DNA from: Dromaius novaehollandiae
Lineage: Eukaryota
Direction: 5' to 3'
Assembly (NCBI RefSeq): GCF_036370855.1
Contig: NC_088135.1
Span: 62,001-126,000 of the forward strand
Length of the DNA stretch: 64,000 bases
Made by a program: the position numbers and the translations under genes. Positions 13,812 through 39,200 of this stretch are shown here, in pieces. The notes below the pieces were generated by a model that was given only the letters and a program-made list of their open reading frames with translations, was not told the DNA's origin and did no database searches. Position 1 is the stretch's first letter. The number at the start of each line of letters is the position of its first letter.

Positions 13812-13817
13812 TTTATT
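13812..13817 (-). other. OSGEP: Polyadenylation signal AATAAA for OSGEP, about 70 nt downstream of its stop codon
   Basis: Plus-strand tttatt at 13812-13817 reads AATAAA on the minus strand. It is embedded in four GGGCGGAGCC repeats. Confidence 0.55.
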
Positions 13818-13884
13818 GGTGGGTGGAGCCTCCATCGTGGGCGGAGCCTGTTGTGGGCGGAGCCTCCGGGCGAGGGGGGCGGGG

Positions 13885-13924
13885 TCAATCGCGCCAGGTG
13901 ACCTCCACCTCGTCCGTGCGGTAG
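13885..13924 (-). CDS. OSGEP: OSGEP exon 11 (terminal): (R)[12 protein letters not shown]
   Basis: Acceptor ccccacag|C TAC. The TGA is the reverse complement of tca at 13885-13887. Confidence 0.85.
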
Positions 13925-19900: not shown

Positions 19901-21720
19901 CACCGCTATGACCCCCCCTAAGGCCCTTAGGACACAATATGGCTGCACATGCTAAGCACATGCTAAGAACATGCTAAGCACATGTGACCCATTTGGTGCC
20001 CCATGGGCCTCCCATACCCCCCACATGCCTCCCATGGGGCTGGGACACCGCTACGACCCTCCCCAGGGCCCCTGGGACACAAAATGGCTGCACATGCTAA
20101 GCACATGCTAAGCACATGCTAAGAACATGTGACCCATCTGGTGTCCCAGGGCCCCCCTATGACTCCCAGGTGTCTTCTATGGGGCTGGGACACATCTATG
20201 ACCCTCTTCAAGGCACCTAGGACACGATATAACTGCACATGCTAAGCACATGGTAAGCACATGTAAGCCCTACGGCGTCCCTATGGGCCCAAATGGCTCC
20301 CTGGGGCCTCCCAGGTGCTCGGGAGGCATCTGGGAGCCCCCAAAGGCCCCTTGGGCACTGTGGGAGCGCACACGCTAACAACACGCTAAGCATATGCTAA
20401 GCACATGTGAGCCCTACGGCGTCTCTGTGGCCCCAAACGGCTCCCTGGGGCCTCCCAGGTGCTCGGGAGGCATCTGGGAGCCCCGAAAAAGCCTCACGGC
20501 CATGATGCAAGCGCACACGCTAACAACACGCTAAGCACATGCTAAGCACATGTGACCTCTACGGCGCCTCAATGGCCCCAAACGGCTCCCTGGGGCCTCC
20601 CAGGTGCTCGGCAGGCGCCTGGGAGCCCCCGCGGCGGCCGGGGGCGGGGGAAGGGGCCACGCACACGCTAAGCACACGCTAAGCACACGCTAAGCACACG
20701 CCAGGGACACGCCGGGGACACACGCACCGCGGGTGAAAGCGACGGCGTCGACGTGGTGGGGTCGCAGCCCGGCCTCCCGCAGCGCCGCCGCCACCAGCCC
20801 CAGCACCCGGCGCCGGTGGTGCCGCGCCGCCCCGCCCGGGGCGAAGCCTGCCGGGGTCACGGCGGGGTCGCCGTGAGGTCACGGGGTCACGGCGGGGTCA
20901 CGGGGTCACGCGGAGGTCACGCGGGGGTCACGCGGGGTTGTGGCGGGGTCACGGGGGGGTCACGCGGGGTCGTGGCGGGGTCACAGCGGGGTCGTGGCGA
21001 GGTCACGGGGTCACGGTGAGGTGACAGCGGGGTCACGGGGTCATGCAGGGGGTCACATGGGGGTCACACGGGGTGGTGGCAGGGTCGCAGGGTCACAGTG
21101 GGGTCACACGGGTCACGGGGGGTCACGGTGGGGTCACAGGGGGCCGATGACGTCACGGGGGGTTGCCGTGGGGTCACATGGGGTCGTGGCGGGGTCCTGG
21201 TGGGGTCACGGGGGGGTCACGGGGGCGCGATGGGGTCACGCCAGGGTCGGGGAGGGTCACGGTGGGTCAAGGGGGCGCGGTAGGGTCACATGGAGGTCAC
21301 ATGGGGGTCACGTGGGGGTCATGGGGGTCACGGCAGGGTCACGGGGTCAGGGCGGGGACTCGGGGTGTCCCCGGGGTCATGGGGTCGCGGGGGGGGGTCA
21401 CACGGGGGTCAGGGGTCACGCGCGGGGGGTGGAGCCCCAGGGCCACGTGGCGCCGGGGGGGGCGGGGCCAGCGGTCACGTGGGCGGCCGGCGGGGGGAGC
21501 GCCAAGGGGTCCCGCGCGCGGGGGGGAGGGGGGGAGCCCGCGGAGGAGGGGGGCGCGGTGACGTCACGGGGGCGCGGTGACGTCACGGGGGGGCGGGGCG
21601 CTCACCCTGGCCGGGCGCCGTGACGTAGGTGGCGCGCGGGTTGCTCAGCACCTGCCCGTCGCGCACCAGCCCCGCCCCCACCTTGTTGGCCGAGCCCTCC
21701 AGCCCCAGCACCACCGGCAT
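13885..21720 (-). CDS. OSGEP: OSGEP (Kae1, the tRNA t6A N6-threonylcarbamoyltransferase catalytic subunit), complete 11-exon CDS of 335 codons
   Basis: The eleven exons sum to 1008 nt including the TGA, which equals the 335 aa of human OSGEP. All junctions are GT/AG with consistent phases. The translation is [49 protein letters not shown]...[41 protein letters not shown]...[12 protein letters not shown], collinear with human OSGEP. Confidence 0.9.
14032..14130 (-). CDS. OSGEP: OSGEP exon 10: (R)[32 protein letters not shown](R)
   Basis: Acceptor cccccag|G TTC, donor CAG CG|gtgagag, 99 nt. Confidence 0.85.
14376..14451 (-). CDS. OSGEP: OSGEP exon 9: (C)[24 protein letters not shown](R)
   Basis: Acceptor ccccaag|GT, donor GAG CG|gtgagg, 76 nt. 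Confidence 0.85.
15189..15279 (-). CDS. OSGEP: OSGEP exon 8: [30 protein letters not shown](C)
   Basis: Acceptor ggcgcag|GAG, donor GGC T|gtacgt, 91 nt. Confidence 0.85.
16184..16249 (-). CDS. OSGEP: OSGEP exon 7: [22 protein letters not shown]
   Basis: Acceptor cccgcag|GCA, donor CAG|gtcggc, 66 nt. Confidence 0.85.
17488..17566 (-). CDS. OSGEP: OSGEP exon 6: (K)[26 protein letters not shown]
   Basis: Acceptor ccgcag|G GGG, donor GAG|gtgagg, 79 nt. Confidence 0.85.
17685..17734 (-). CDS. OSGEP: OSGEP exon 5: [16 protein letters not shown](K)
   Basis: Acceptor ccgcag|ATC, donor AAA AA|gtgagtg, 50 nt. Confidence 0.85.
18499..18594 (-). CDS. OSGEP: OSGEP exon 4: [32 protein letters not shown]
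   Basis: Acceptor ccccag|GTC, donor CAG|gtgccg, 96 nt. Confidence 0.85.
18934..19109 (-). CDS. OSGEP: OSGEP exon 3: (G)[58 protein letters not shown]
   Basis: Acceptor ctcggcag|GC, donor CAG|gtacac, 176 nt. Contains the Kae1 metal-binding motif HxxGH. Confidence 0.85.
19130..20720. repeat. Approximately 120 bp tandem repeat carrying GCTTAGCATGTGC / GCTTAGCGTGTGC motifs, about 12 copies, in OSGEP intron 2
   Basis: The unit ...atggctgcacatgctaagcacatgctaagaacatgctaagcacatgtgacccatttggtgccccatgggcctcccatacccccca... repeats with a period of about 120. The same GCTTAGCGTGTGC motif reappears at 51990-52340 and 57560-57600. Confidence 0.85.
20728..20847 (-). CDS. OSGEP: OSGEP exon 2: (G)[39 protein letters not shown](G)
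   Basis: Acceptor ccggcag|GC, donor CGC G|gtgcgt, 120 nt. The 5' boundary could lie up to about 20 nt further upstream within a GTGACCCCG repeat. Confidence 0.75.
21606..21720 (-). CDS. OSGEP: OSGEP exon 1: [38 protein letters not shown](G)
   Basis: The ATG is the reverse complement of cat at 21718-21720. Donor CAG G|gtgagcg, 115 nt. Confidence 0.85.
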
Positions 21721-22797
21721 GACGTCAGCGCCTGCGTCACCACCCGCCCCCCCGGTCACCGCCGCTCCCGCTGCTCCCGCCGCGCCGCTCCGAACTCTCC
21801 GCTTCCGGCCGCGCGCTGCGCCCCCACTTCCGCTTCCGGCAGCGCGCCGCCCACTTCCGCCCGCACTGCCGCCCTACTTCCGCCCGCGCTGCGCTGCCTC
21901 ACTACTTCCGGTCGTGCCACCGCCCTACTTCCGCCCTCACCGCCTCCCTACTTTCGCCCACACTGCGCTGCCTCACTACTTCCGGTCGTGACACTGCCCT
22001 ACTTCCGCCCTCACCGCCTCCCTACTTCCGCCCGCACTGCGCGGCTTCGCTACTTCCGCCCGCGCCGCCTCCCTACTTCCGCCCGCGCCGCGCCGCCTCC
22101 CTACATCCGCCCGCCCGGCGCTCCTCCTCCTTCCGCTTCCGGCCCCGCCCCTTCCGCCCGCGTGCGTCCAGCGGCGGCGGCAGCAGCGGAGCTTCTCCCC
22201 GCTCCTCCCCCCCCCACCGCCGCTCCCGCGGGCGCTGATTGGCTGCGAGGGGCCCCCCCCGTGCCCCGCCCCCACCGGAGCGGCGCGGCGGGCGCTGATT
22301 GGCTGCGAGGGGCTTTTCGCCCCCCCCCCACCGTGCCCCGCCCCCACCGGAGCGGCGCGGCGAGGCGAACCGGGCGGCGCTGATTGGTTCGGAGCGGCGC
22401 GGCGGGCGCTGATTGGCTGCGGCGGGGTGGTGGCCGGGGGGGGGGGAGGGGGGGGCGGAGGCGCGGGGGGGGGGGGGGGCGAGCTACGGCGCGCGCTGAT
22501 TGGCCGCGCCGCGCGTGGGGGGGGGGGCGGGCTTTGCCTTCACGGGCGCTCCTGATTGGCCGGGCCCGCGCGGCGCGCGCTGATTGGCCGAGGCGCGCGG
22601 AAGGGGCGGGGCTTCGCGCCTCCCCTCTTCCCCCCCCCCCCCCCCCCCCCCCACAACGGCCGGTTCCTCTCCAGGGAGGCGGCGCCGAGCGAGGGGGCGT
22701 GGCCTGCCGCCGAGGGGGCGTGGCCTGCCGCCGAGGGGTGTGATCTGCCGCCGAGGGGGCGTGGTCTGCCGCCGAGGGGGCGTGGCCTGCAGCCGCC
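21721..22797. promoter_or_regulatory. Bidirectional CpG-island promoter shared by OSGEP(-) and APEX1(+), which are head to head about 1.08 kb apart
   Basis: There are at least 12 tandem ETS/GABP-type motifs (plus-strand ACTTCCG(C/G), reading CGGAAGT on the other strand) between 21780 and 22140. Seven CCAAT boxes of the form GCGCTGATTGGC(C/T) lie between 22230 and 22590. A CRE palindrome TGACGTCA at 21721-21728 abuts the OSGEP ATG. Confidence 0.6.
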
Positions 22798-22864
22798 ATG
22801 CCGAAGCGGAGCAAGAAGGAGGCGGCGGAGGGAGACGCTGGGAAGGAAGCGGCCGCTGAGACCG
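22798..22864 (+). CDS. APEX1: APEX1 coding exon 1: [22 protein letters not shown](G)
   Basis: ATG at 22798, donor ACC G|gtacgg. Confidence 0.8.
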
Positions 22865-25800
22865 GTACGGACCAGTTTGGACCAGTATAAACCAGTATGG
22901 ACCAGTATAAACCAGTATAGACCAGTATAGAGCAGTTTAGACCAGTATAGACCAGTATAGACCAGTATAAACCAGTATAGACCAGTATAGACCAATATGG
23001 GTTGGGGCTCCCTCCCACTGTCCTCCCCAGGCCCCCCAGTGCCCTCCCAGTGCCTCCCAGTATGTCCCAGTGGCTCCCAGTAGCCCCCCCAATATGTCCC
23101 AGTGGGCCTCCAGTGCCGTCCCAGTATGTCCCAGTGTTGTCCAGTACTTCCCAGTATCTCCCAAGGCCGTCCCAGCATCACCCAGTGCCTCCCAGTATCT
23201 CCCAGTCCCCTCCCAGTAGCCCCTAGTGCCCTCCCAGTTCACCCAGTCCCCTCCCAGTGCCTCCCAGGGCCCCCCCAGCTCCCCCCTAGACCCTCCCCAG
23301 TGCCCCCCAGTGCCCCCCAAACCCCCCCCAGTGCCTCCCGGTCCCTTCCCAGTGCCCCCCAGTGCTTCGCAGTGCCTCCCAGTGCCCCCCAGTGCCCCCC
23401 AGACTCTCTCCAGTGCCCCCCAAACCCTCTCCAGTACCTCCCAGTGCCCCCCAGTGCCTCCCAGTGCCCCCCAAGTCCTCTCTAGACCCTCCCCAGTGCC
23501 CTCCCAGTGCCTCCCAGTGCCCCCCAAATCCCCTCTAGACCCTCCCCAGTGCCTCCCAGTGCCCTGCAAGCCCCCCTAGACCCTCCCCAGTGCCTCCCAG
23601 TGCCCTGCAACCCCCCCTAGACCCTCCCCAGTCCCTCCCAGTGCCCCCCAGTGCCTCCCAGTCCCCCCCCAGTGCCTCCCAGTGCCTCCCAGTGTCTCCC
23701 CAGTGCCTCCCAGTGCCTCCCAGTGCCTCCCAGTGCCCCCCAAATCCCCTCTAGACCCTCCCCAGTGCCTCCCAGTGCCCTGCAAGCCCCCCTAGACCCT
23801 CCCCAGTGCCTCCCAGTGCCCCCCAGTGCCTCCCAGTCCTCCCCCAGTGCCTCCCAGTGCCTCCCAGTGTCTCCCCAGTGCCTCCCAGTGCCCCCCAGTG
23901 CCTCCCAGTGCCCCCCAAGTCCTCTCTGGACCCTCCCCAGTGCCTCCCAGTGCCTCCCAGCACCCCCAAGTCCCCTCTAGACCCTCCCCAGTGCCTCCCA
24001 GTGCCCCCCAGTGCCTCCCAGTGCCCCCCATATCCCCTCTAGACCCTCCCCAGTGCCCACCTAGTCCCCCCCAGACCCTCCCCTGTCCCCCCCAGACCCT
24101 CCCCAGTGCCTCCCAGTGCCCCCCAGTGCCTCCCAGTGCCCCCCAAATCCCCTCTAGACCCTTCCAAGTGCCCCCCAGTGCCTCCCAGTGCCCCCCAGTG
24201 CCTCCCAGTGCCCCCCAAGTCCCCTCTAGACCCTCCCCAGTGCCTCCCAGTCCCCCACAGTGCCTCCCAGTGCCTCCCAGTGCCCCCCAGTGACGCCGGC
24301 TCCCCCCCCCACGCAGGAGGGCGCCCCCCGAAGGCCCCGCGGGGCGACGGGGGGGAGGCGGCGCCCTACGAGGACCCCCCCGACCGGCTGACGTCACCGG
24401 GGGGGCAGCGCTTCACCCTCAAGGTGACGTCGTGGAACGTCGACGGCCTCCGCGCCTGGGTGCGCAAGCAGGGCCTGCAGGTGAGCAGGGGCCCAGGCGT
24501 CCGGGAGAGGGGCCCAGGCGTCCGGGAGAGGGGCCCAGGCGTCCGGGAGGGGCCCAGGTGTCCAGGAGAGGGGCTCAGGTGGGCAGGGAGGGGCCCAGGC
24601 GTCCGGGAAAAGGGCCCAGGCGTCCGGGGAGGGCCCAGGCGTCCGGGAGGGGCCCAGGAGTCCGGGGAGGGGCCCAGGCGTCCGGGGAGGGGCCCAGGTG
24701 TCCAGGAAGGGGCCCAGGTGGGCAGGGAGGGGCCCAGGCGTCTGAGTAAAGGGCCCAGGCGTCCGGGTGAGGGTCCAGGCGTCAGGGAAAAGGGCCCAGG
24801 CGTCCAGGAAGGGCCCAGGAGTCTGGGAAAAGGGCCCAGGCATCCGGGAAGGGGCCCAGGCGTCCGGGAGAGGGGCCCAGGCGTCCGGGTGAGGGCCCAG
24901 GCGTCCGGGGAGGGGCCCAGGCATCCAGGAGGGGCCCAGGCGTCCGGGAAAGGGGCCCAGGCGTCCGGGAGAGGGGCCCAGGCGTCCAGGTGAGGGGCCC
25001 AGGTGTCCGGGAGGGGCCCAGGCGTCCAGGAAAGGGCCCAGGCATCCGGGAAAGGGGCCCGGGTGTCCGGGGACGGGCCCAGGCGTCCGGGAGAGGAGCC
25101 CAGGTGTCCGGGGAAGGGCCCAGGCGTCCGGGAGAGGGGCCCAGGCGTCCGGGGAGGGGCCCAGGCGTCCTGGAAGGGTCCCAGGCGTCCTGCCACCCCC
25201 CCCCCGTGTCCCCCCCCCGGCAGTGGGTGCAGGAGGAGGCCCCGGACGTGCTGTGCCTGCAGGAGACCAAGTGCGCGGGGGGGGCGGTGCCCCCGGAGGT
25301 GCGGGCCCTGCCCGGCCTCCCCCACCAGTTCTGGGCCAGCGCCGAGGGCAAGGCCGGCTACAGCGGCGTGGGGCTGCTGGCCCGCCACGAGCCCCTCAGC
25401 GTCACCTACGGCATCGGTGAGTCCCCCCCCGGCCCCCAAAATGCTCCTTTCTGCCCCAAACCGGCGTCGTGCTGCCCCAAAATACTCTTTTGTTACTCCA
25501 AAATACTCTTTTTCTGCTCAAAAACGCTCTTTTCTATCCCAAAATGGCATCGTTGTACCCCAAAACACTCTTTTGTTACTCCAAAATACTCATTTTCTAC
25601 TCAAAAAGGCTTTTTTCTACCCCAAAATGGTGTCGTCGTACCCCAAAATACTCTTTTGTTACTCCAAAATGCTCGTTTCCTGCTCGAAAACGTTCTTTTC
25701 TGTCCCAAAATGGCGGCATCATACCCCAAAAACTCTTTTTTGTTACTCCAAAATACTCTTTTGTTACTCCAAAATACTCTTATCCCGCTCGAAAACGCTC

Positions 25801-28800
25801 TTTTCTGTTCTAAAATGGCGTCGCTGTACCCCAAAATACTCTTGTTACTCCAAAATACTCATTTGTTGCTCCAAAATACTCTTTCCCCGTTCGAAAACGT
25901 TCTTTTCTGTCCCAAAATGGCGTCGTAGTACCCCGAAACTCTCATTTGTTACTCCAAAATACTCATTTTCTACCCAAAAAGGCTCTTTTGTACCCTAAAC
26001 TGGGCTTGTGCTACCCCAAAATGCTCATTTGTTACTCTAAAATACTCTTCCTACTCAAAAACGCTCTTTTCTATCCCAAAATGGTGTCGTACTACCCCAA
26101 AATACTCATTTGTTGCTGCAAAATACTCTTCCCACTTGAAAATGCTCTTTTCTGTCCCAAAATGGCATGGGGCTGCTGGCCCGCCACGAGCCCCTCAGCG
26201 TCACCTACGGCATCGGTGAGTCCCCCCCCGGCCCCCAAAGTGCTCCTTTCTGCCCCAAACCGGCGTCGTGCTGCCCCAAAATACTCCTTTGTTACTCCAA
26301 AATACTCTTTTCCCGCTCGAAAACGCTCTTTTCTATCCCAAAATGGCATCGTTGTACCCCAAAACACTCTTTTGTTACTCCAAAATACTCTTTTCCCGCT
26401 CGAAAATGATCATTTCTATCCCAAAATGGTGGCATCGTACCCCAAAATACTCTTTTGTTACTCCAGAATACTTTTTTCCCGCTCGAAAACGCTCTTTTCT
26501 ATCCCAAAATGGCGTCGTTGTACCCTAAAATACTTTTGTTACTCCAAAATACTCATTTCCTACTCAAAAAGGCTGTTTTCTACCCCAAAATGGTGTCGTC
26601 GTACCCCAAAATACTCTTTTGTTACTCCAAAATACTCTTTTCCCGCTCGAAAAAGTTTTTTTCTGTCCCAAAATGGCGCCATCATACCCCAAAAACTCTT
26701 TTTTCTTACTCCAAAATACTCGTTTGTTACTCCAAAATACTCTTATCCCGCTCGAAAACACTCTTTTCTGTCCTAAAATGGCGTCGCTGTACCCCAAAAT
26801 ACTCTTGTTACTCCAAAATACTCATTTGTTGCTCCAAAATACTGTTTTCCCGCTCGAAAACGCTCTTTTCTATCGCAAAATGGTGTCATCGTACCCCAAA
26901 ATACTCTTTTGTTACTCCAAAATACTTTTTCCCGCTCGAAAACGCTCTTTTCTATCCCAAAATGGCGTCGTTGTACCCCGAAACTCTCATTTGTTACTCC
27001 AAAATACTCATTTTCTACCCAAAAAGGCTCTTTTCTACCCTAAACTGGGCTTGTGCTACCCCAAAATGCTCATTTGTTACTCTAAAATACTCTTCCTACT
27101 CAAAAACGCTCTTTTCTATCCCAAAATGGTGTCGTACTACCCCAAAATACTCATTTGTTGCTGCAAAATACTCTTCCCACTTGAAAATGCTCTTTTCTGT
27201 CCCAAAATGGCATGGGGCTGCTGGCCCGCCACGAGCCCCTCAGCGTCACCTACGGCATCGGTGAGTCCCCCCCCGGCCCCCAAAGTGCTCCTTTCTGCCC
27301 CAAACCGGCGTCGTGCTGCCCCAAAATACTCTTTTCCCGCTCGAAAATGCTCTTTTCTATTCTAAAATGGCGTTGTTGCACCCTAAAATACTGTTGTTAC
27401 TCCAAAATACTCTATTGTTGCTCCAAAATATTCTTTTCCCACTGAAAAATGCTCTTTTCTATCCCAAAATGGTGTCGTCCTACCCTAAAATACTCTTTTG
27501 TTACTGCAAAATTCTTATTTCCTACTCCAAAAGACTCTTTTCTACCCCAAAATGGTGTCATCGTACCCCAAAATACTCCTTTGTTACTCCAAAATATTCT
27601 TTTCCTGGTCGAAAATGCTCTTTTTTGTCCCAAAATGGCATCGTCGTACCCCAAAAACCTCTTTTGTTACTCTGAAATACTCATTTGTTACTACAAAATA
27701 CTCTTTCCCGCTCAAAAATGCTCTTTTCTATCCCAAAATGGCATCGTCATACCACAAAACTCTCATTTGTTACTCCGGAATACTCATTTGTTACTCCAAA
27801 ATACTCTTTCCCACTTGAAAATGCTCTTTTCTATCCCAAAATGGCATCATAGTACCCCAAAATATTTGCTACTCCAAAATACTCATTTGTTACTCCAAAA
27901 TACTCTCTTCCCGCTCGAAAATGCTCTTTTCTATCCCAAAATGGCGTTGTTGTACCACAAAACTCTCATTTGTTACTCCAAAATACTCATTTGTTACTCC
28001 AAAATACTCTTTTCCCGCTTGAAAATGCTCTATTTTATTCCCAAATGGTGTCATAGTACCCCAAAATACGCATTTGTTATCCCAAAATACGCATTTGTTA
28101 CTCAAAAATGCTCTTTTTTACCCCAGACTGGGCTCCTGCTACCCCAAAGTACTCTTTTGTTACTCCAAAATACTCTTTTCTCGCTCGAAAACGCTCTTTT
28201 CTATCCCAAAACGGCGTTGTGGTACCCCAAAATACTCATTTGTTACTCCAAAGTACTCATTTGTTACCCCAAAGTACTCTTTTGTTACTCCAAAATACTC
28301 TTCCCACTCGAAAACGCTCTTTTCTATCCCAAAATAGCATTGTGGTACCCCAAAATACTTATTTGTTACTCCAAAATACTCATTTGTTACTCCAAAGTAC
28401 TCTTTTCCCGCTCAAAAATGCTCTTTTCTGTCCCAAAATGGCGTGATAGTACCCCAAAATACTCGTTTGTTACTCCAAAATATTAATATTCTACTCTAAA
28501 ATGCTCTTTTCTACCCCAAGCTGGCCTCTTGCTGCCCCAAAACACTCCCTTGTTGCCCCAAAATACCCATTTGCCACCCTGAAATACTCTTTTTTGCCCC
28601 AAACTGGCCTCGTAGTACCCTGAAGAACTCATTTGTTACTCAAAAATACTCATTTCCTACCCTAAAATGCTCTTTTCTGTCCCAAACTGGGCTCGTGCTG
28701 CCCTGAAATACTCATTTTGTCCCTCTTCTGCCCCCGTTCCGTCCATCTGCTCCTCTTTCATCCATCTCCTGTTCCATCCATCTCCTGTTCCATCCATCTT

Positions 28801-30264
28801 GTCTTATTCCATCTATTTTTTGCTCCCATTTGCTCCATCTTTCTCCATTCCATCCATCTTCTTCTGTTCCATCTTCTCCTCCTGCTCCATCCATCTCCTC
28901 CCGCTCCATCCATCTCCTCCTCCTGGTTCCCTCCATCTTCTCCTGCTCCATCCATCCATCTTCTCCTGTTTCGTCCATCTTTTCCTGTTTCGTCCATCTT
29001 CTCCCATTTCATCCATCTTCTGTTTTTCTATCCATCTTCTCCCGTTTCATCCATCTCCTCCTGTTCCATCCATTTTGTCCTGCTCCATCCATCCATCTTG
29101 TCCTGCTGCATCCATCCATCTTGTCCCACTCCATCCATCTTGTTCTGCTCCATCCATCCATCTCCTCCTCCATCCATCCATCCATCTCCTCCTCCATCCA
29201 TCCATCTCCTGCTCCATCCATCCATCTCCTCCTCCATCCATCCATCTCCTGCTCCATCTATCCATCTTGTCCTCCTCCATCCATCCATCTTCTGCTGCTC
29301 CATCCATCCATCTCCTGCTCCATCCGTCCATCTCCTCCTGCTCCATCCATCCATCTCCTCCTCCATCCATCCATCTTGTTCTCCTCCATCCATCCATCTT
29401 CTGCTGCTCCATCCATCCATCTCCTCCCGTTCCATCTTCTCCTCCATCTCCTGCTCCATCCATCCATCTCCTTCTCCATCCATCCATCTTGTTCTCCTCC
29501 ATCCATCCATGTCCTTCTCCATCCATCCATCTTGTCCTCTTCCATCCATCCATCTCCTCCTGTTCCATCCGTCTTCTCCCGTTCCATCCATCTTCTCCCG
29601 TTCCATCCATCTCCTCCTCCATCTCCTGCTCCATCCATCCATCTCCTCCTCCATCCACCCCTCCCTTCCCGTCCCCCCCATCACCATTTCCCCCCGTTTC
29701 CCCCCCGTTTTTCACCGTTTCCCCCCCGTTTCCCCCCACAAAACCGCAGGCGACGAGGAGCACGACCGCGAGGGCCGCGTCCTCACCGCCGAGTTCCCCG
29801 CCCTCTTCGTGGTGGCCGCCTACGTCCCCAACGCCGGCCGCGGCTTGGCCCGCCTGGGCCGCCGTACCCGCTGGGACGCCGCCTTCCGCGCCTTCCTCGC
29901 CCGCCTCGACGCCCGCAAGCCCGTGGCCCTCGCCGGCGACCTCAACGTGGCCCACGGCCCCCTCGACCTCCGCCACCCCCGCGCCAACCGCCGGGCGCCC
30001 GGCTTCACCGACGAGGAGCGCGGGGCCTTCACCGCCCTCCTGGACGCCGGCTTCATCGACTCCTTCCGCCACCTTTACCCCGCCGTGCCCCACGCCTACA
30101 CCTTCTGGACCTACTTGGGGGGCGCCCGGGCCCGCAACGTGGGCTGGCGCCTCGACTACTTCGTCCTCTCCCGGCGGCTCCAAGGGGCCCTTTGCGACAG
30201 CAAGATCCGCTCCAAGGTCATGGGCAGCGACCACTGCCCCATCACGCTCTACCTGGCCCTATAG
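22798..30264 (+). CDS. APEX1: APEX1 (APE1/Ref-1, AP endonuclease 1), complete CDS in 4 coding exons, 312 aa
   Basis: Exon lengths 67+164+193+515 = 939 nt, in frame. The translation is collinear with human APEX1: ...[38 protein letters not shown]|[17 protein letters not shown]...[20 protein letters not shown]|[15 protein letters not shown]...[12 protein letters not shown]...[12 protein letters not shown]. Confidence 0.9.
24317..24480 (+). CDS. APEX1: APEX1 coding exon 2: (G)[54 protein letters not shown]
   Basis: Acceptor cccacgcag|GA, donor CAG|gtgagc, 164 nt. Confidence 0.85.
25224..25416 (+). CDS. APEX1: APEX1 coding exon 3: [64 protein letters not shown](G)
   Basis: Acceptor ccccccccggcag|TGG, donor ATC G|gtgagt, 193 nt. 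Confidence 0.85.
25420..28700. repeat. AT-richer 30-40 bp satellite (CCAAAATACTCTTTTGTTACTCCAAAATACTC...) in APEX1 intron 3, containing two extra copies of the exon-3 3' end plus donor
   Basis: The fragments tggggctgctggcccgccacgagcccctcagcgtcacctacggcatcggtgagtcccccccc at about 26166-26222 and 27213-27270 duplicate 25367-25423. Confidence 0.9.
28700..29700. repeat. CCATCCATCT(CCTC) satellite in APEX1 intron 3
   Basis: ccatccatctcctcctgctccatccatccatct... Confidence 0.85.
29750..30264 (+). CDS. APEX1: APEX1 coding exon 4 (terminal): (G)[32 protein letters not shown]...[12 protein letters not shown]
   Basis: Acceptor aaaaccgcag|GC, TAG at 30262-30264, 515 nt. Confidence 0.9.
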
Positions 30265-31700
30265 CTGCCCTATAGCCCTCTAAGCCTGGTTTATATGGGG
30301 CTGGGGTCTTCCATGTTGGGTTGTGATGGTCCCATCACACTCTACCTGGCCCTATAGCTGCCCTATAGCCCCCTAAGCCTGGTCTGTATGGGGCTGGGGT
30401 CTTCTCCGTTGGGTCATGATGGTCCCATCAAGCTCTGCTTGGCCCTATAGCTGCCCTATAGCCCTCTAAGCGTGGTCTGTATGGGGCCATCGTGGTCCTT
30501 CTGGGGTCGTGATGGTCCTATCATGCTCTACCTGGCCCTATAGCTGCCCTATAGCCCCCTAAACCTGGTCTATATGGGGCTGGGGTCTTCTCCGTTGGGT
30601 TGTGATGGTCCCATCACGCTCTACCTGGCCCTATAGCTGCCCTATAGCCCCCTAAACCTGGTCTATATGGGGCTGAGGTCTTCCATGTTGGGTTGTGATG
30701 GTCCCATCACGCTCTACCTGGCCCTATAGCTGCCCTATAGCCCCCTAAGCTTGGTCTATATGGGGCTGAGGTCTTCTCCGTTGGGTTGTGATGGTCCCAT
30801 CATGCTCTACCTGGCCCTGTAGCTGCCCTATAGCCCCCTAAGCTTGGTCTATATGGGGCTGAGGTCTTCCATGTTGGGTTGTGATGGTCCCATCACGCTC
30901 TACCTGGCCCTATAGCTGCCCTATAGCCCCCTAAGCGTGGTCTGTATGGGGCCATCGTGGTCCTTCTGGGGTCGTGATGGTCCTATCATGCTCTGCTTGG
31001 CCCTATAGCTGCCCTATAGCCCCCTAAACCTGGTCTATATGGGGCTGGGGTCTTCTCCGTTGGGTCATGATGGTCCCATCACGCTCTGCTTGGCCCTATA
31101 GCTGCCCTATAGCCCCCTAAACCTGGTCTATATGGGGCTGAGGTCTTCTCCGTTGGGTTGTGATGGTCCCATCACGCTCTACCTGGCCCTATAGCTGCCC
31201 TATAGCCCCCTAAACCTGGTCTATATGGGGCTGGGGTCTTCTCCGTTGGGTCGTGATGGTCTCATCAAGTTCTGCTTGGTCTTATAGCTGCCCTATAGCC
31301 CTCTAAGCTTGGTCTATATGGGGTTGAGGTCTTCTATGTTGGGTTGTGATGGTCCCATCATGCTCTACCTGGCCCTATAGCTGCCCTATAGTCCCCTAAA
31401 CCTGGTCTATATGGGGCTGGGGTCTTCTCCGTTGGGTCATGATGGTCCCATCAAGCTCTGCTTGGCCCTATAGCTGCCCTATAGCCCTCTAAGCGTGGTC
31501 TGTATGGGGCTGAGGTCTTCTCCGTTGGGTTGTGGTGGTCCCATCATGCCCTACTTGGCCCTATAGCTGCCCTATAGCCCCCTAAACCTGGTCTATATGG
31601 GGCTGAGGTCTTCTCCGTTGGGTTGTGATGGTCCCATCACGCTCTACCTGGCCCTATAGCTGCCCTATAGCCCCCTAAATCTGGTCTGTACGGGGCCATC
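30265..31700. repeat. Approximately 93-105 bp tandem repeat of about 16 copies, each retaining the last 8 codons plus stop of APEX1 (CCCATCACGCTCTACCTGGCCCTATAG)
   Basis: The first copy is the genuine APEX1 3' end at 30238-30264. ...gtgatggtcccatcacgctctacctggccctatagctgccctatagcc... then recurs at about 30334, 30424, 30527 and so on up to about 31650. Confidence 0.9.
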
Positions 31701-33560
31701 ATGTTTTTGGGGGGCTCACGATGGTCCCACCAACCTCCGACCCTATAGCCGCCCACCCCGCAGCCCCATAAGTCCAGTCTATAGGGGCCTCTCGTGCTCC
31801 GTTTAGGGTCAGGATGGTCCCATCAACCCCCGCTTGACCCTATAGGTCTCCTACAGCCCCATAAGTCTCGTCAGAGGGCCCCCCCCAGCCCCTATGGACC
31901 TATAGGGACCCCCCGCAACCCCTCTACCCCCCCATAGGGCCCTATAGCCCCCCCCAATTTATAGAGCCCTATATAGGGCACTGTATAGCCCCCCGAGCTG
32001 TATAGATCTCGTCATCCCCTATAGACCCGCAACCCCTATAGCCCCCCTTGATGTGTATAAGCCCCCCCCCCCAGGCCCTATAGCACCCCTGCCCCCCGCT
32101 CAGCCCATATGGACCCACCACCCTATAGGCTCCCTGTGACCCCTATAGGCTCCCTGTGACCCCCCTATAGCCCCATTGGCCCCCCCAGCCCCTATAGACC
32201 CAACATCCGTAGTGCCCCCGACCTCCTATAGGCTCCCTGGGCCCCTATAGCATTCTTTGGCCCCTACAGACCCCCCCCCAGCTCCTATAGACCCAGCACC
32301 CATAGCTCCCCATGGCCCCTATAGCCTCCCCAGGCCATATAGACCCCACACCCCTAGCGCCTCCGATCCCCTATAGGCTCCCCGTGACCCCTATAGCCCC
32401 CATTGGCCCCATAGACCCCCCCCCAGCCCCTATAGACCCAACACCCGTAGTGCCTCTGACCCTCTATAGGCTCCCCGTGACCCCTATAGCCCACTTTGGT
32501 CTGTATAGACCCCCCCCAGCTCCTATAGGCCCTGCACCCATAGCTCGCCATGATGCCTATACCCCCTTTGGTCCCTATAGACCCCCCCACAAGCTCCCCC
32601 AGACCCTACAGACCCAAGACCCATAGCTCCCCTGATCCTCTATAGGGTCCCCATGACCCTTACAGCCCCCTTTGGCCCCTGTAGACCACCCTGCAGCCCC
32701 TATAGACCCAACACCCCTAGCTCCCCTGACTTCCTATAGGCTCCCCATGGTCCCTGTAGCCCCCCTTGGCCCCTATAGATCCCCCCTCAGCTCCTATAGA
32801 CCCAGCACCCATAGCACCTCCGATCCCTTATGGGCTCCCCATGACTCCTATAGCCCCCATTGACCCTTATAGACCCCCCCCGCCCCTATACATCCAACAC
32901 CCCTAGCTCCCCAGTCCCCTATAGGCTCCTCGTGACCCCTATAGCCCCCACTGGCTCCTATAGATCCCCCCAAGCCCCTATAGCCCCTATAGACCCAACA
33001 CCCATAGCTCCCCCATAGGCTCCCTATGATCCCTATAGGCTCCCTGTGACCCCCTATAGCCCCCCCAGCCCCTATAGACCCCCCCAAGCCCCTATAGTCC
33101 CCCCAGCCCCTATAGACCCCCCCAAGCCCCTATAGTCCCTACGCCCATAGCTCCCCCATAGGCTCCCTATGACCCCTATAGGCTCCCTGTGACCCTCTAT
33201 AGCCCCTCCAGCCCCTATAGACCCCCCAAGCCCCTATAGTCCCCCCAGCCCCTATAGACCCCCCCAGCCCCTATAGTCCCTACGCCCATAGCTCCCCTAT
33301 AGGCTCCCTATAACCCCTATAGGCTCCCTGTGACCCCCTATAGCCCCCCCAGCCCCTACAGACCCCCCCCAAGCCCCTATAGCCCCCCCCAGCCCCTATA
33401 GATCCAACGCCTATAGCTCCCCCATAGGCTCCCTATGACCCCTATAGGCTCCCTGTGACCCCCTATAGCCCCCCCGAGACCTATAGCCCCCCCCGCCACC
33501 TATATAGTTCCCGACGTCCCCTATAGCCCCTCCCCCAGCCCCTATAGCCCCTCCCCCCCC
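31700..33560. repeat. CCCTATAG-containing low-complexity satellite
   Basis: Units such as cccctatagccccc / tataggctccctgtgacccctatagcc. Confidence 0.8.
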
Positions 33561-33651
33561 GGCCCGGCCGGCCCTCAGGGACCCCCGCTATTTTTTTAAC
33601 CTCCCCCCCCAAAAAACACTGCCCCCCCCAACCCCGTGCGGGGGGGGGGGC

Positions 33652-33657
33652 AATAAA
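33652..33657 (+). other. First AATAAA downstream of the APEX1 stop; possible APEX1 poly(A) signal, which would imply a 3'UTR of about 3.4 kb made of satellites
   Basis: gggcaataaaagg, followed by an A10 run. No AATAAA occurs between 30265 and 33651. Confidence 0.25.
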
Positions 33658-34479
33658 AGGTGGCGGAAAAAAAAAATGGTGGTGTGGTTGCGCAGGGGCC
33701 CAGGCGTCCGGGGAGGGGCCCAGGCGTCCGGGAGGGGCCCAGGCGTCCGGGGAAGGGGCCCAGGCGTCCGGGGAGGGGCCCAGGCATCCGGGAAGGGGCC
33801 CAGGCGTCCGGGAAAGGGCCCAGGCGTCCGGGAAAGGGGCCCAGGCGTCCGGGGAGGGGCCCAGGCGTCCGGGAAAGGGGCCCAGGCGTCCGGGAACGGG
33901 GCCCAGGCGTCCAGGAAAGGGCCCAGGTGTCCGGGAAAGGGGCCCAGGCGTCCGGGGAGGGGCCCAGGCGTCCGGGAAAAGGGGCCCAGGCGTCCGGAAA
34001 AGGGGCCCAGGCGTCCGGGAAAAGGGGCCCAGGTGTCCCCAGAGGGGCCCAGGCGTCCGGGGAGGGGCCCAGGTATCCGGGAAAGGGGCCCAGGCGTCCG
34101 GGAGAGGGGCCCAGGCGTCTGGGGAGGGGCCCAGGCGTCCGGGAAAGGGCCCAGGCGTCCGGGAGAGGGGCTGGATACGAACAAAAGGGGCCCAGGCGTC
34201 CGGGAGGCCGAGGGGCCCAGGCGTCCGGGCCTTTATTTACAGTCTCTGCCCTGCCCCCGCCGGAGGGGGAGGAGCCATTAAATATATGTACACGCGGGGG
34301 GCGGGGCTTATGTACAGCAGGAGGGGCGGGGCCTCGCGGAGGGGGCGGGGCTAGCGGGCCCCAGGGCATTGTGGGATTGGAAGGGGGGGGCCACGCGCTC
34401 CTCCCCGTCGCCAAGTGCATGCTGGGAAGGGGGAGGGCGGAAGCGGGTCCCGGGCGCCGTACCGGGGGGGGGGGGTTGG

Positions 34480-34760
34480 CGGGTCCAAGATGGCCGCCGC
34501 GGCGGAGGGCGTCTGTCCGACATGGCCGCAGCGCCGCGGCCTGGCCACCCAAGATGGCCGCCGCCATGGAGGCCGCCATTCCAAGATGGCTGCCCCCATG
34601 GGAGACCGCCATTGCAAGATGGCTGCCCCCATGGGAGGCCGCCATTCCAAGATGGCTGCCCCCATGGGAGGCCGCCATTCCAAGATGGCCGCCCCCATGG
34701 GAAGCCGCCGTCGCAAGATGGCCGCCACGCCGGAGCTTCGCCATGCAAGATGGCCGCCGC
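34480..34760. repeat. About nine copies of a ~33 bp repeat carrying the YY1-consensus-like core AAGATGGC(C/T)GCC
   Basis: ccattccaagatggctgcccccatgggaggccg..., with caagatggccgcc at 34488, 34548, 34573, 34612, 34645, 34680, 34716 and 34748. Confidence 0.8.
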
Positions 34761-36070
34761 GCTGCGCTGCGTGTCGAAGCGTGTCGAAGCGTGTTGGAGC
34801 GTGTCGAGACGCCTCGAATGCTGCCAAACCCCGCCCACACGCGTGGGGGGGGGCGAGCGGAGCCGTGTCCAAGCGTGTTAACGCGTGTCGAAGCGTGTTG
34901 AGCCATGTCAAAGCGTGTCAAAGCCTGTCGAAGCGTGTCGAGGCGTGTTGAAGCGTGTCGAGGCGCCTCAAGGCGTGTTGAGCCACCCCGAGGCGTGTTG
35001 AGGCGGGTTGAAGCGTGTCGAGGCGTGTTCGGCCGCCATGTCGAGCCATGTCGCCACGTGTCGAGCCGCGCCGAAGCGTGTCGAGGCGCCTCAAGGCGTG
35101 TCCAGCCATGCCAAAGCGTGTCAAGGCGTGTCGAAGCATGTCAAGGCGCGCCGAAGCGTGTCGAGGCGTGTTGAAGCGCGTCGAGGCGCCTCACGGTGTC
35201 TCGAGCTGCGTCAAGGCAGGTCAAAGCGTGTTGAAGCGTGTTGACGCGTGTTGAGCCGTGATGTTGAGCCACGTCAACACGTGTTGAGCCGCGCCGAAGC
35301 GTGTCAAGCCGCGTTGAAGCGTGTTGAGGCACGTCGAAGCGTGTCAAAGGCGCCTCAAAGCGTGTCCAGCCGTGTCGAGGCATGTTGACCCACTGTGTCG
35401 AGCTGCACCGAAGCGCGTCAAGCCGTGTTGAAGCGTGTCAAGGCGTGTCAAAGCGTGTCGAACCCCACTGAAACACGTCAATGTGTGTTGAAGCGTTTCA
35501 AGGTGTGTCAAGACGTGTTGACCGTGTCGAGGCGTGTCGAAGCGTGTCGAGTTGCATCAAAGCACTTCAAGCCGTGTCGAAGCGTGTCAAGCCGCGTCGA
35601 AGCGTGTTGAAGCATGTCGAAGCGTGTCAGGCCGTGTCGCAGCGTGCCGAGGCGCCTCAAAGCGTGTTGAGCCGCGTTGAAGCGCGTCTTAGCGTGTCGA
35701 AACGTGCCAAGGCGCCTCAAGGCATGTTAAGCTGCGCCAAAGCGTGTCCAAAGCGTGTTGAGCCGTGCCGAAGCGTGTTTAAGCGAGTCGAGGCGCCTCA
35801 AAGCGTGCCGCGCCGCGCCGCAGCGTGTCCAAAGCGTGCCCATAGCGTGTCAGAGCGTGCCGAAGCGTGTCTAGGTGCGCCAAGCTGCCACACCTCCCCG
35901 GCACACGCGTGTGGGAGGCGTGTGGGAGCGCGCGCGGGCGGCGTGGCTCCCCCGGGCTGGCGCCAGCGAGGCGTGACGAGGCGTGACGAGGCGTGACGAG
36001 GCGTGTGGCGGCGCGTGGCGGCGTGACGAAGCGTCGAGGCGCGTCGAGGCGTGTCGGGGCGTGTCGAGGC
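34760..36070. repeat. 10 bp satellite GCGTGTCGA(A/G) / GCGTGTTGAG
   Basis: gtcgaagcgtgtcgaggcgtgttgaagcgtgtcaaggc... Confidence 0.9.
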
Positions 36071-36084
36071 GTGTTCAGGCGTGT

Positions 36085-36228
36085 TCAGGCGGGGCCGGGC
36101 AGCGGGTGGCTCACGCGGACGCAGCCCCAGTAGCCGGCGCGCAGCAGACAGGCGCCGGCCGCCGCCGCCAGCAGGGCCCAGGCCGCGTGGAGCCCCCCGA
36201 AGCGCCGCGCCGCCCCCCAGGTGCCCAC
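36085..36228 (-). CDS. PIP4P1: PIP4P1 exon 7 (terminal): [47 protein letters not shown] (transmembrane helix 2)
   Basis: Acceptor cttggcgcag|GTG. The TGA is the reverse complement of tca at 36085-36087. Confidence 0.85.
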   Translation of the reverse strand: MGTWGAARRFGGLHAAWALLAAAAGACLLRAGYWGCVRVSHPLPGPA

Positions 36229-39200
36229 CTGCGCCAAGGGGACGCCTGGGTCCCGCGCCCGGACGCCTGGGCCCCTCTGCCCGGACGCCTGGGCCCTTTT
36301 CCCGGACGCCTGGGCCCCGCGCCCGGACGCCTGGGCCCCTCTCCCGGACGCCTGGGTCCCTTTTCCCGGACGCCTGGGCCCCTTCCCGGATGCCTGGGCC
36401 CCTTCCCGGATGCCTGGGCCCCTTTTCCCGGACACCTGGGCCCCTCCCCGGACGCCTGGGCCCCTTCCCGGACGCCTGGGCCCCTTTCCCGGACGCCTGG
36501 GCCCTTTCCCGGATGCCTGGGCCCCTTTCCCGGACGCCTGGGCCCCTTTCCCGGATGCCTGGGCCCTTTCCCGGATGCCTGGGCCCCTCCCCGGACGCCT
36601 GGGCCCCTCCCCGGACGCCTGGGCCCTTTCCCGGACGCCTGGGCCCCTTCCCGGACGCCTGGGCCCTTTCCCGGACGCCTGGGCCCCTCTCCTGGACGCC
36701 TGGGCCCCTTTCCCGGACGCCTGGGCCCCTCCCGGACGCCTGGGCCCCTCTCCTGGACGCCTGGGCCCCTTTCTGGGACGCCTGGGCCCCTTCCCCGGAC
36801 ACCTGGGTCCCTCCCCGGACGCCTGGGCCCCTTTCCCGGACGCCTGGGCCCCTCTCCCGGACGCCTGGGCCCCTTCCCCGCACTCACCGCCAGGCCGGCG
36901 CCGGCAGCGGCCATGACGAGCCCCAGCAGGAAGCAGCAGACGCAGCGTCTCCGGGGGTAGCGGCGCCCCACGGCCGACCTGGGGGGGGCGAGACGGGGCC
37001 CAGGCGTCCGGGAAAGGGCCCAGGCGTCCGGGAGAGGGGCCCAGGCGTCCTGGCCTGGACCCCTCCCCCCCCGCTGGCACCGCTCCCAAACCTCCCCATC
37101 CCCCCCACCCACTGGGGACCCAGGCGTCCAGGAAAGGGGCCCAGGCGTCCGGGTGCAGGGCCCAGGCGTCCGGGGAGGGGCCCAGGCGTCCGGGAAAGGG
37201 GCCCAGGTGTCCGGGAGGGGCCCAGGCGTCCGGGGAGGGGCCCAGGCATCCGGGAAAAGGGCCCAGGCGTCCGGGAGAGGGGCCCAGGCGTCCGGGAGAG
37301 GGGCCCAGGCGTCCGGGGAGGGGCCCAGGCGTCCGGGAAAGGGGCCCAGGTGTCCGGGAGGGGCCCAGGCGTCCGGGAAAAGGGCCCAGGCGTCCGGGAA
37401 AAGGGGCCCAGGCGTCCGGGAAAAGGGCCCAGGCGTCCGGGAAAGGGGCCCAGGCGTCCGGGACACTCACACTTTGCGGCAGTGCGGGCACCGGGCCAAG
37501 GTCCGTTCCGAGAACTCCGTCCACTGCGGGGGGGGGGGGAAGGGAAAGAGGGGCGTCAGGGACCCAGGCGTCCGGGTGCTGCTACCGCCCCCCACACAGA
37601 ACAGCCACCCGCAGGGGCCCAGGCGTCCGGGAGGGGCCCAGGCGTCCGGGAGGGGCCCCCAAAAACCCACCCAAGGGGCCCAGGCGTCCGGGAAAGGGCC
37701 CAGGCGTCCGGGAAAAGGGCCCAGGCGTCCGGGAGAAGGGCCCAGGTGTCCCAGAAAGGGACCCAGGCGTCCGGGAAAGGGGCCCAGGCGTCCGGGAGAG
37801 GGGCCCAGGCGTCCGGGAAAAGGGCCCAGGCGTCTGGGAAAAGGGCCCAGGTGTCCCAGAAAGGGACCCAGGCGTCCGGGAAAGGGGCCCAGGCGTCCGG
37901 GAGAGGGGCCCAGGCGTCCGGGGAAGGGGCCCAGGCGTCCGAGGAAGGGGCCCAGGCGTCCGGGGGGCCCAGGCGTCCGGGAGAGGGGCCCAGGCGTCCG
38001 GGAGGGGCCCAGGTGTCCGGGGAAGGAGCCCAGGCGTCCGGGAGGGGCCCAGGCGTCCCAGAAAGGGCCCAGGTGTCCGGGAAAAGGGCCCAGGCGTCCG
38101 GGAAAGGGCCCAGGTGTCCAGGGAAGGGGCCCAGGTGTCTGGGAGAGGGGCCCAGGCGTCCGGGAGAGGGGCCCAGGCGTCCGGCTCACCAGGAAGGGGC
38201 TCCCGCAGTGGCCACACGCCACCCGTCGTCCCCCCGGTTGGGGGTCGGGACTGGGGGCTCCGGCCTGCACCGGGCCCAGGTTGATGATGCGCTTACTGGG
38301 AAACGACAAACTGGTTAAACTGGTTCGACTGGGAGCGCTGGGAGCAAGAGCTTGGACATCCCCAGGCTCTCCCAGTGTCTCCCAGTGTCTCCCAGTATCC
38401 CCCAGTACACCCCAGTAAAGCCCCGTAGCACTCAAGAGCCCTCCCAGTGCGCCCCAGTGCTCTCCCAGTATATCCCAGTGCTCTCCCAGTCCATCCCAGT
38501 GTCTCCCAGTGCCTCCCAGCAGCCCTCTAAGGCCCCCCAGGGCCCTCCCAGTATATCCCAGTGCCCTCCCAGTCCACCCCAGTGGCTCCCAGTGGCTCTC
38601 TAAGGCCCCCCAGGGCCCTCCCAGTATATCCCAGTGCCCTCCCAGTCCACCCCAGTGGCTCCCAGTGCCTCCCAACAGCCCTCTAAGGCCCCCCAGGGCC
38701 CTCCCAGTATATCCCAGTGCCCTCCCAGTCCACCCCAGTGGCTCCCAGTGCCTCCCAGCAACGCTATAAGGCCCCCCAGGGCCCTCCCAGTATATCCCAG
38801 TGCCCTCCCAGTCCACCCCAGTGGCTCCCAGTGCCTCCCAGCAGCCCTCTAAGGCCCCCCAGGGCCCTCCCAGTATATCCCAGTGCCCTCCCAGTCCACC
38901 CCAGTGGCTCCCAGTGGCTCTCTAAGGCCCCCCAGGGCCCTCCCAGTATATCCCAGTGCCCTCCCAGTCCACCCCAGTGGCTCCCAGTGCCTCCCAGCAG
39001 CCCTCTAAGGCCCCCCAGGGCCCTCCCAGTATATCCCAGTGCCCTCCCAGTCCACCCCAGTGGCTCCCAGTGCCTCCCAGCAGCCCTCTAAGGCCCCCCA
39101 AAGCCCTCCCAGTATATCCCAGTGCCCTCCCAGTCCACCCCAGTGGTTCCCAGTGCCTCCCAGCAACGCTATAAGGCCCCCCAGGGCCCTCCCAGTATAT

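Follow-up and report, generated by a model that had tools for sequence, protein, structure and literature searches.

A tandem array spanning the stop codon of APEX1 in Dromaius novaehollandiae, probably an ancient case of exon stuttering

Massive local tandem expansions in introns of the chicken dot chromosomes have recently been named “sequence stuttering” (PMC12954441, Genome Biol Evol 2026). Where the repeated segment also takes in the edge of a bordering exon, as it does in 236 introns (190 on dot chromosomes), the process is called “exon stuttering”. The exon parts are 20-187 nt long (median 36) and occur in 1-44 copies, their source lies no more than 1 nt from the exon border, and the coding sequence stays intact. 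Exons were screened only against their adjacent introns, and the blocks are said to stay inside these introns. The expansions are described as recent, as differing between related species, and as length-polymorphic within populations, and the paper is silent on APEX1, on stop codons, and on untranslated regions (UTRs). According to a 2026 preprint, minisatellite-like repeats make up most of the non-coding euchromatin of dot chromosomes in several birds. Here we describe a 93-bp tandem array that begins within the last codons of APEX1, in a stretch of 64,000 nucleotides from Dromaius novaehollandiae (NCBI RefSeq assembly GCF_036370855.1, contig NC_088135.1, positions 62,001 to 126,000 of the forward strand). 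This whole stretch is called the window, and its own numbering is used throughout.

Satellites and minisatellites in concerted evolution provide a more general comparison. Terminal variable number tandem repeats (VNTRs) are also known in vertebrate genes, such as the 40-bp VNTR in the 3'UTR of SLC6A3 and the VNTR inside the last exon of CEL. Like these two, the APEX1 array is probably a tandem repeat at the end of a transcript, with a copy number that can change without destroying the gene. Those two are confined either to the UTR or to the coding sequence (CDS), whereas the APEX1 array starts in the CDS and carries a stop codon in each unit, and its 93-bp unit is conserved across bird orders.

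The array and its boundary at the end of APEX1

The array and the gene end overlap by 27 nt, as follows:

29747-29748, plus strand: acceptor AG of the last APEX1 exon
29749..30264, plus strand: last APEX1 coding exon, corresponding to residues 147-318 of human APE1 (tblastn, phmmer)
30238..30264, plus strand: 27 nt encoding PITLYLAL and the stop, at once the CDS end and positions 1-27 of copy 1
30262-30264, plus strand: TAG stop codon of APEX1
30238..31725, plus strand: array of 16 head-to-tail copies of a 93-bp unit (TRF, register table, nhmmer)
31729..31871, plus strand: two decayed distal copies of the unit (nhmmer)

The frame of the last exon is open from 29749 to 30264, and its product starts with GDEEHD. 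Human APE1, used in tblastn as an approximate query, matches it at 66% identity over 172 aa (residues 147-318). In a phmmer search of the PDB, residues 1-171 of the product align end to end with residues 147-318 of the human protein (1e9n_A, E 1.9e-73). The nearest database proteins are the APEX1 of birds (Bucorvus, Anser, Nycticryphes, Chunga, Sarcoramphus, and Calidris), at 78-84% identity, and no APEX1 in the protein collection searched is more than 84% identical to that of the window. Copy 1 opens at 30238 with CCCATCACGCTCTACCTGGCCCTATAG, which is the last 24 nt plus TAG of this open exon. The coding end of an intact last APEX1 exon, its last eight codons and TAG, is supplied by the first copy of the array, as an earlier note on this stretch had stated.

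Tandem Repeats Finder (TRF) places the array at 30238-31696, with a period of 93, 15.7 copies, 88% matches, and a score of 2199. Cutting 30238-31725 at exact 93-bp steps gives 16 copies without any indel. A profile of the consensus unit (nhmmer) gives 18 consecutive plus-strand matches from 30238 to 31871, with per-copy E-values of 1e-17 to 1e-22 across the 16 in-register copies, followed by the decayed copies at 31729-31818 (E 1.2e-6) and 31820-31871 (E 4.2e-5). Identity to the TRF consensus is 78-92% for most of the 16 copies and lower for copies 3 and 16, and the mean identity among window copies is ~88%. The tandem array of about 16 copies reported earlier is real, far beyond chance, with two further decayed copies and a period of 93 bp in place of the ~95 bp first given.

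The homology between unit and gene has a sharp limit. When the unit consensus with its junction is aligned locally to the whole 516-nt last exon, CDS -27..0 pairs with unit positions 0..27. The score of 27 (z = 13.2) is reached by none of 200 dinucleotide shuffles, which upholds the earlier proposal that the unit was seeded from a coding exon edge. Homology further upstream in the CDS was also considered and rejected: the tblastn match is weak (E 0.38), and shuffle-controlled DNA alignments never pass -27/-29. No open reading frame (ORF) of 60 aa or more is found in the array in any frame.

Copies behind the stop have diverged freely. The block CCCATCACGCTCTACCTGGCCCTATAG had been thought to be kept in every copy, but it is exact in only six of the 16 (30238, 30610, 30703, 30889, 31168, and 31633). 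Mismatches to this 27-mer number at most one in 8 copies, two in 11, three in 14, and four in 15, and the worst match is copy 12 (31261) with seven. The peptide PITLYLAL is encoded in 7/16 copies, and the others read PIMLYLAL, PIKLCLAL, PITLCLAL, PIMLCLAL, PIMPYLAL, or LIKFCLVL. Only the in-register TAG has survived in every one of the 16. Of the 120 substitutions among copies, 38 are C>T, and the ACG codon has lost its CpG in six copies, now reading ATG in five and ACA in one. Since non-synonymous change is free and CpGs decay in the coding-derived part, the downstream copies are without coding constraint, and this is the pattern expected behind a stop codon. The 27 nt that stem from the CDS are not clearly more uniform from copy to copy than the rest of the unit (0.065 versus 0.087 differences per site), and with the frequent non-synonymous changes this led us to reject a special conservation of that part.

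Some variants tie distant copies together. Copies five units apart are 90.9% identical, versus ~88% at other lags of the identity matrix, and copies 3-6 correspond to copies 8-11, which indicates that blocks of units were duplicated. This 5-unit (465-bp) higher-order signal is weak, and a strong higher-order repeat was looked for and rejected. A complex three-base variant, TCCATG in place of TCTCCG, is common to copies 1, 5, and 7, while copies 3, 8, and 16 have another tail in common. As variants of copy 1 occur in interior copies, the first copy is nested within the diversity of the array and takes part in exchange. Each junction between units forms an imperfect palindrome, GTGATGG-TC-CCATCAC.

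Orthologous arrays in other birds

Genomic APEX1 loci were fetched for ten other bird species by way of bird APEX1 proteins. The family is present in five of them:

Sarcoramphus papa: array directly 3' of APEX1, period 94, 23 copies
Phoenicopterus ruber: array directly 3' of APEX1, period 93, 12.5 copies, then a second 93-bp type, 3.3 copies
Chunga burmeisteri: array directly 3' of APEX1, period 93, 11 copies
Pterocles burchelli: array directly 3' of APEX1, ~40 units, periods shifted to 61-103 bp
Bucorvus abyssinicus: family present 3' of APEX1 with a 93/94-bp unit, the contig stopping 362 nt past the stop codon

A period of ~93 bp (93/94) is kept in four of these five species, Pterocles being the exception. 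In the 64-kb window and the ten loci, profile matches are confined to the 3' flank of APEX1 and to the plus strand, with none away from this flank or on the minus strand. In the species with the family, the best match between unit and last exon pairs CDS -27..-3/0 with unit positions 0..24/27, and in Sarcoramphus, Phoenicopterus, and Podargus the consensus units of the other species match the last exon best at CDS -27..-3, with z of 3-6. Aligned semi-globally, the ~230 nt that start at CDS -27 have one and the same order in all six species, with the CDS end at unit positions 1 to ~24, followed by the rest of unit 1 and then by unit 2. Insertions just after the stop, within unit 1, are lineage-specific. 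Because orthologous arrays with the same start are found in six orders, the array is old. The lineage-specific array considered in the earlier note gives way to an orthologous family that at least five other bird orders also carry 3' of APEX1.

The units themselves have diverged to different degrees. Consensus units of Sarcoramphus and Phoenicopterus are 88% identical, also over the 66 non-coding positions, while the window unit is only 59-65% identical to them. Its front half is nearest to the distal type of Phoenicopterus, which bears the octamer CCCTATAG, and the tail typical of the other species' units (the A-like tail) is still present in window copies 3, 8, and 16. The A-type units of different orders agree with each other against their own CDS ends (TTGGCCATAA versus CT(C/G)GCCCTnTAG). 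In the other birds, units and CDS end of the same species disagree at 6-8 of the 27 positions, whereas the units of the window carry the exact present CDS end. Since these common states are unlike the respective CDS ends, one ancient array is simpler than repeated independent seeding. Judging from these alignments, the array probably predates the radiation of Neoaves. On published avian time trees the six orders span the base of Neoaves, giving an age of ~60 million years or more.

Units of Sarcoramphus (locus L001, 16740-17200), of Phoenicopterus (L002), and of loci L008 and L010 contain the palindrome GATGA(C/T)GTCATC, which reads as TGACGTCA, similar to a cAMP response element (CRE), where its CpG is intact. 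Six copies of the CpG-intact TGACGTCA lie in stop-proximal units of Sarcoramphus. The proximal units of the other birds are richer in GC and CpG than the distal ones. The palindrome is missing from the window unit.

Other pieces of the last APEX1 exon are also duplicated in birds, with differing unit sizes. Its 3' parts recur downstream in Podargus (L005 17451-17816 and 18482-18763) and Excalfactoria (L009 1774-8472, in eight places), and its 5' parts recur upstream in Anas (L003 20759, 21633, and 22437), Calidris, and Colius. Some of these pieces have been absorbed into annotated proteins (P0001 and P0013). Several annotated bird APEX1 proteins (P0008, P0018, P0011, P0010, and P0013) are without the canonical stop and have short C-terminal extensions: ..LALEPPPEATP in Phoenicopterus (L002 12301-12327), ..MAIDETKAP in Excalfactoria (L009 515-535), ..LALDSPEMDAKSH in Colinus, ..LALGSS in Callipepla, and ..LALEGAG in Colius. 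These may be due to instability of the gene end, or else to annotation or assembly error.

Origin and upkeep of the array

The array resembles exon stuttering in that it is a direct, imperfect tandem repeat of a short local segment including a coding-exon edge. Its exon part (27 nt) and its copy number (16-18) are both within the published ranges (PMC12954441), and the last exon of APEX1 is intact, aligning to human APE1 up to the last residue. The setting is likewise GC-rich, repeat-dense avian euchromatin: the GC content of the window is 42-79%, mostly >65%, the window is saturated with tandem arrays, and the orthologous locus of Sarcoramphus lies on a 366-kb chromosome-level record. APEX1 also shows the intronic form of the process:

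26161..26220, plus strand: copy of the last ~57 nt of the preceding exon with its GTGAGT donor (tblastn, sequence)
27206..27265, plus strand: second copy of the same exon edge and donor

Earlier exons of the gene lie at ~24313-24480 and ~25200-25421, with a GT donor after each, and both copies are in the intron after the exon ending at 25421. They are part of a ~1045-bp higher-order repeat, in which 25882-26181 and 26927-27226 are 98% identical. They are classical intronic exon stuttering, the same process at another exon edge, and could act as decoy splice donors.

The terminal array differs from the described cases in three ways. Its edge is the CDS end at the stop codon rather than a splice site. 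Its copies lie 3' of the stop, with no intron after them, whereas the published copies lie in the adjacent intron and include a splice site. Finally, the family is common to at least six bird orders with the same boundary, whereas the published events are recent and independent (PMC12954441). The earlier note did not recognise the array as a described structure, but tandem expansion of an exon edge already has a name. The event class is therefore known, and the straddling of a stop codon and the deep age are new here. In the literature searched on APEX1 tandem repeats and on stop-codon-spanning repeats, no prior description of the array was found.

We consider it likely that the array is an ancient terminal-exon stutter, kept by unequal exchange and probably neutral 3'UTR sequence. 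Early in bird history, probably before Neoaves diversified, a 93-bp segment across the APEX1 stop (27 nt of CDS and ~66 nt of 3' flank) would have undergone tandem duplication. As the direct duplication starts 27 nt before the stop, the first copy would keep the frame and the later copies would come to lie behind the stop. Concerted evolution, through unequal exchange and gene conversion, would since then have maintained the array while renewing its copies. This turnover would give each lineage a consensus of its own while the start point was kept, along with the ~93-bp period and the position in four of the five other species. The array of the window bird would have been made uniform again, or amplified anew, on the model of a unit with a 27-mer identical to the present CDS end. 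Re-homogenisation or re-amplification from a unit like copy 1 is probable because the window units carry exactly that end, although recombinational deletion between the CDS end and a distal-type unit may have had the same result.

An array kept by exchange would behave much as satellites and minisatellites in concerted evolution do. Its units are head to tail, with a within-species identity (~88%) well above that between species (59-65%), several units have been duplicated together, and variants are found in non-adjacent copies (1/5/7 and 3/8/16). Unlike in usual satellites, the first unit is anchored in a CDS under purifying selection, and the family appears to be locus-specific as far as sampled.

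By tblastx against the annotated Sarcoramphus locus, OSGEP is on the minus strand at ~15178-22991 and the exons of PIP4P1 (TMEM55B) are on the minus strand at ~36187-41516. The window therefore carries a conserved avian block of OSGEP, APEX1, and PIP4P1, in which APEX1 and PIP4P1 are convergent. Two candidate polyadenylation (poly(A)) signals lie between these two genes:

33590..33665, plus strand: conserved block with the candidate APEX1 poly(A) signal, AATAAA at 33652-33657
34232..34237, minus strand: candidate PIP4P1 poly(A) signal, AATAAA

As the earlier note had it, the AATAAA at 33652 is the first after the APEX1 stop, and it is the sole canonical plus-strand signal before PIP4P1. Neither AATAAA nor ATTAAA occurs on the plus strand between 30265 and 33652, and the next signals beyond it are the minus-strand AATAAA at 34232 and a plus-strand ATTAAA at 34277. 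In Sarcoramphus, Phoenicopterus, and Podargus, the first plus-strand signal comes 2.9-3.4 kb past the stop, with a minus-strand signal within ~100 nt. The block CCCTCAGGGA..TATTTTTAAC..GGGGCCAATAAAAG can be aligned between these three species and the window. The array is probably 3'UTR, given that the block around the sole canonical signal is conserved between orders. The signal at 33652 is likely that of APEX1, and we infer that the whole array lies within a 3'UTR of ~3.4 kb. The 3'UTR suggested in the earlier note is thus retained as probable, without the recurrence of PITLYLAL in all copies. The array would be without a function in its own right, a tolerated filler typical of GC-rich, repeat-dense dot-chromosome euchromatin. 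Its anatomy, the homology boundary, the orthologous arrays, and their colinearity with the CDS end are observed, whereas a single ancient origin, upkeep by exchange, 3'UTR status, and neutrality are inferred from them.

Several points weigh against this account. The 93-bp array is absent or replaced in the other five species:

Podargus: no 93-bp array, but 21/63-bp arrays and two partial copies of the last exon
Myiozetetes: no 93-bp array, but 20-bp arrays
Upupa: no array
Anas: no 93-bp array, but 24/72-bp arrays
Excalfactoria: no 93-bp array, but 21-bp arrays with eight partial CDS-end copies

Because the array is lacking in Galloanserae (Anas and Excalfactoria) as well as in Podargus, Myiozetetes, and Upupa, several losses or replacements must be assumed. 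Its origin is bracketed only by the presence of the array in six orders. There may also be copies of the family elsewhere, the scan having covered the 64-kb window and the ten loci. Lastly, period and position have been kept for tens of millions of years, longer than the published expansions suggest (PMC12954441), and this could mean constraint.

Constraint is the core of the alternative in which the array has been preserved by selection instead of turnover. It would then be a module between the convergent APEX1 and PIP4P1 that acts in the 3'UTR or as a terminator, perhaps by offering binding sites to proteins or RNA. The single position and start point in six orders, the ~93-bp period in four of the five others, the 88% match between the Sarcoramphus and Phoenicopterus consensus units, and the conserved order of arrays between the two genes would all be expected from such a module. 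The palindrome GATGA(C/T)GTCATC kept in A-type units, CRE-like when its CpG is intact, also speaks in its favour, and so does the core GGCCCTATAGCTGCCCTATAGCC of the window unit, where copies differ much less (0.016 differences per site) than in the rest (0.116). However, the family has been lost or replaced in Podargus, Myiozetetes, Upupa, Anas, and Excalfactoria, and the palindrome has been lost from the window unit. The quiet segment is not a box common to the species, a candidate rejected as the segment occupies positions 17-46 in the window and 47-93 in Sarcoramphus. The CpG decay and the free substitution look neutral. A scan of Rfam gave no match beyond a sub-threshold chance match at 32653 (E 0.25), and the DNA fold of two units is no better than that of shuffles (z = -1.5). 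In these checks of Rfam, ORFs, folding, and shared low-variability segments, no sign of function was found, and we regard such a module as unlikely. With the same reservation, it could have been retained since before the Neoaves radiation as a 3'UTR binding platform or a transcription-termination buffer. If so, the CDS register (93 bp being 31 codons, with units ending in PITLYLAL and a stop) would buffer the gene end against exchange and read-through, and some dot-chromosome stutters would be functional and long-lived rather than transient instability.

Parallel origin would have each lineage seed its own array from the orthologous CDS end and flank, with -27 as a recurrent breakpoint owing to some local sequence feature. 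Independently expanded, differing repeats are indeed reported in orthologous introns of related species (PMC12954441). APEX1 edges have been duplicated repeatedly, in differing unit sizes, in Podargus, Excalfactoria, Anas, Calidris, and Colius, and the junction palindrome GTGATGG-TC-CCATCAC could favour a recurrent breakpoint. These clearly independent events at APEX1 nevertheless have quite other boundaries and unit sizes, whereas the arrays of the six orders share an identical start (-27), with a near-identical period in four of the five others. The A-type units also have derived states in common between orders that are missing from the CDS ends of the respective species, and their 88% identity extends to the 66 non-coding positions. 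We regard a parallel origin as improbable.

A young satellite, made recently from the exon edge in the window species alone, would fit the perfect register, the six copies whose 27-mer equals the CDS end, and an array more homogeneous (~88%) than the age of the family implies. It is very improbable in view of the orthologous arrays in five other orders, and the ~12% divergence between copies and the two decayed distal copies are unlike a very recent expansion. A recent re-amplification within the window lineage is possible, and is part of the ancient stutter that we favour. That an unrelated dispersed or transposon-derived repeat, or an assembly artefact, merely abuts APEX1 has a negligible probability: the window is full of other satellites and CCCTATAG is widespread in the Anas locus, but the unit starts inside the CDS, its profile matches only the plus strand of the APEX1 3' flank in the window and the ten loci, and the array is not an artefact because its copies differ and it recurs in the independent assemblies of other species.

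Neighbouring arrays and significance

The 93-bp array is followed by another set of repeats:

31900..33560, plus strand: CCCTATAG-rich arrays, with periods of ~20, 94, and 143 bp (TRF, octamer counts)

The octamer CCCTATAG corresponds to the last two codons and stop of APEX1. In the window, 73 of its 74 occurrences lie between 30257 and 33540, all on the plus strand, versus 0.7 expected, and CCCTATAG-rich arrays are found at a like relative position in Phoenicopterus and Sarcoramphus. A descent of the distal arrays from the gene end is plausible. In Anas (L003 24577-32525) the octamer occurs 109 times on the plus and 81 times on the minus strand, up to 8 kb past the stop; PIP4P1 is annotated there from 27128, so these arrays are not confined to the APEX1 flank. 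The descent of all CCCTATAG arrays from the APEX1 stop region is weakened by this abundance on both strands and beyond the flank.

Further satellites fill the surroundings. The 20-bp GGGCCCAGGCGTCCGGG has 821 matches in the window at no more than two mismatches (510 on the plus and 311 on the minus strand), in blocks such as 8000-14000, 14000-18000, 24000-26000, 33694-34229, 36000-38000, and 52000-56000. Some of its blocks are inside APEX1 introns, and one array has been inserted between the poly(A) signals of the two convergent genes. Arrays take up almost the whole of the last APEX1 intron, first of 21/62/83-bp TACCCCAAAATACTC repeats (25404-28763), and then of 19-23-bp TCCATCC repeats (28736-29680). 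The motif CCCAAAAT is found again in 3' flank repeats of Podargus, Excalfactoria, Myiozetetes, and Pterocles. On the PIP4P1 side, a 31-33-bp CAAGATGGCCGCC array is followed by GCGTGTC-type arrays in the same order across bird orders (window: 34544-34758 and 34769-35807; Sarcoramphus, L001: 20161-20423 and 20891-21186; Phoenicopterus, L002: 15422-15724 and 15874-16538; Podargus, L005: 20365-21695). From APEX1 to PIP4P1, the intergenic region as a whole is thus a series of satellites in conserved order.

The APEX1 array extends stuttering to the end of a gene. A stop codon can lie inside the stuttered segment, and the last codons of a gene can in this way give rise to several kilobases of 3' flank, probably 3'UTR. 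By persisting with its original boundary across at least six orders, the array provides a datable, orthologous case in which the turnover of stutters can be followed. A coding end that takes part in exchange would be a testable explanation for the repeated stop losses and C-terminal extensions in annotated bird APEX1, and, in practical terms, such arrays account for the truncated or mis-annotated APEX1 of many bird assemblies.

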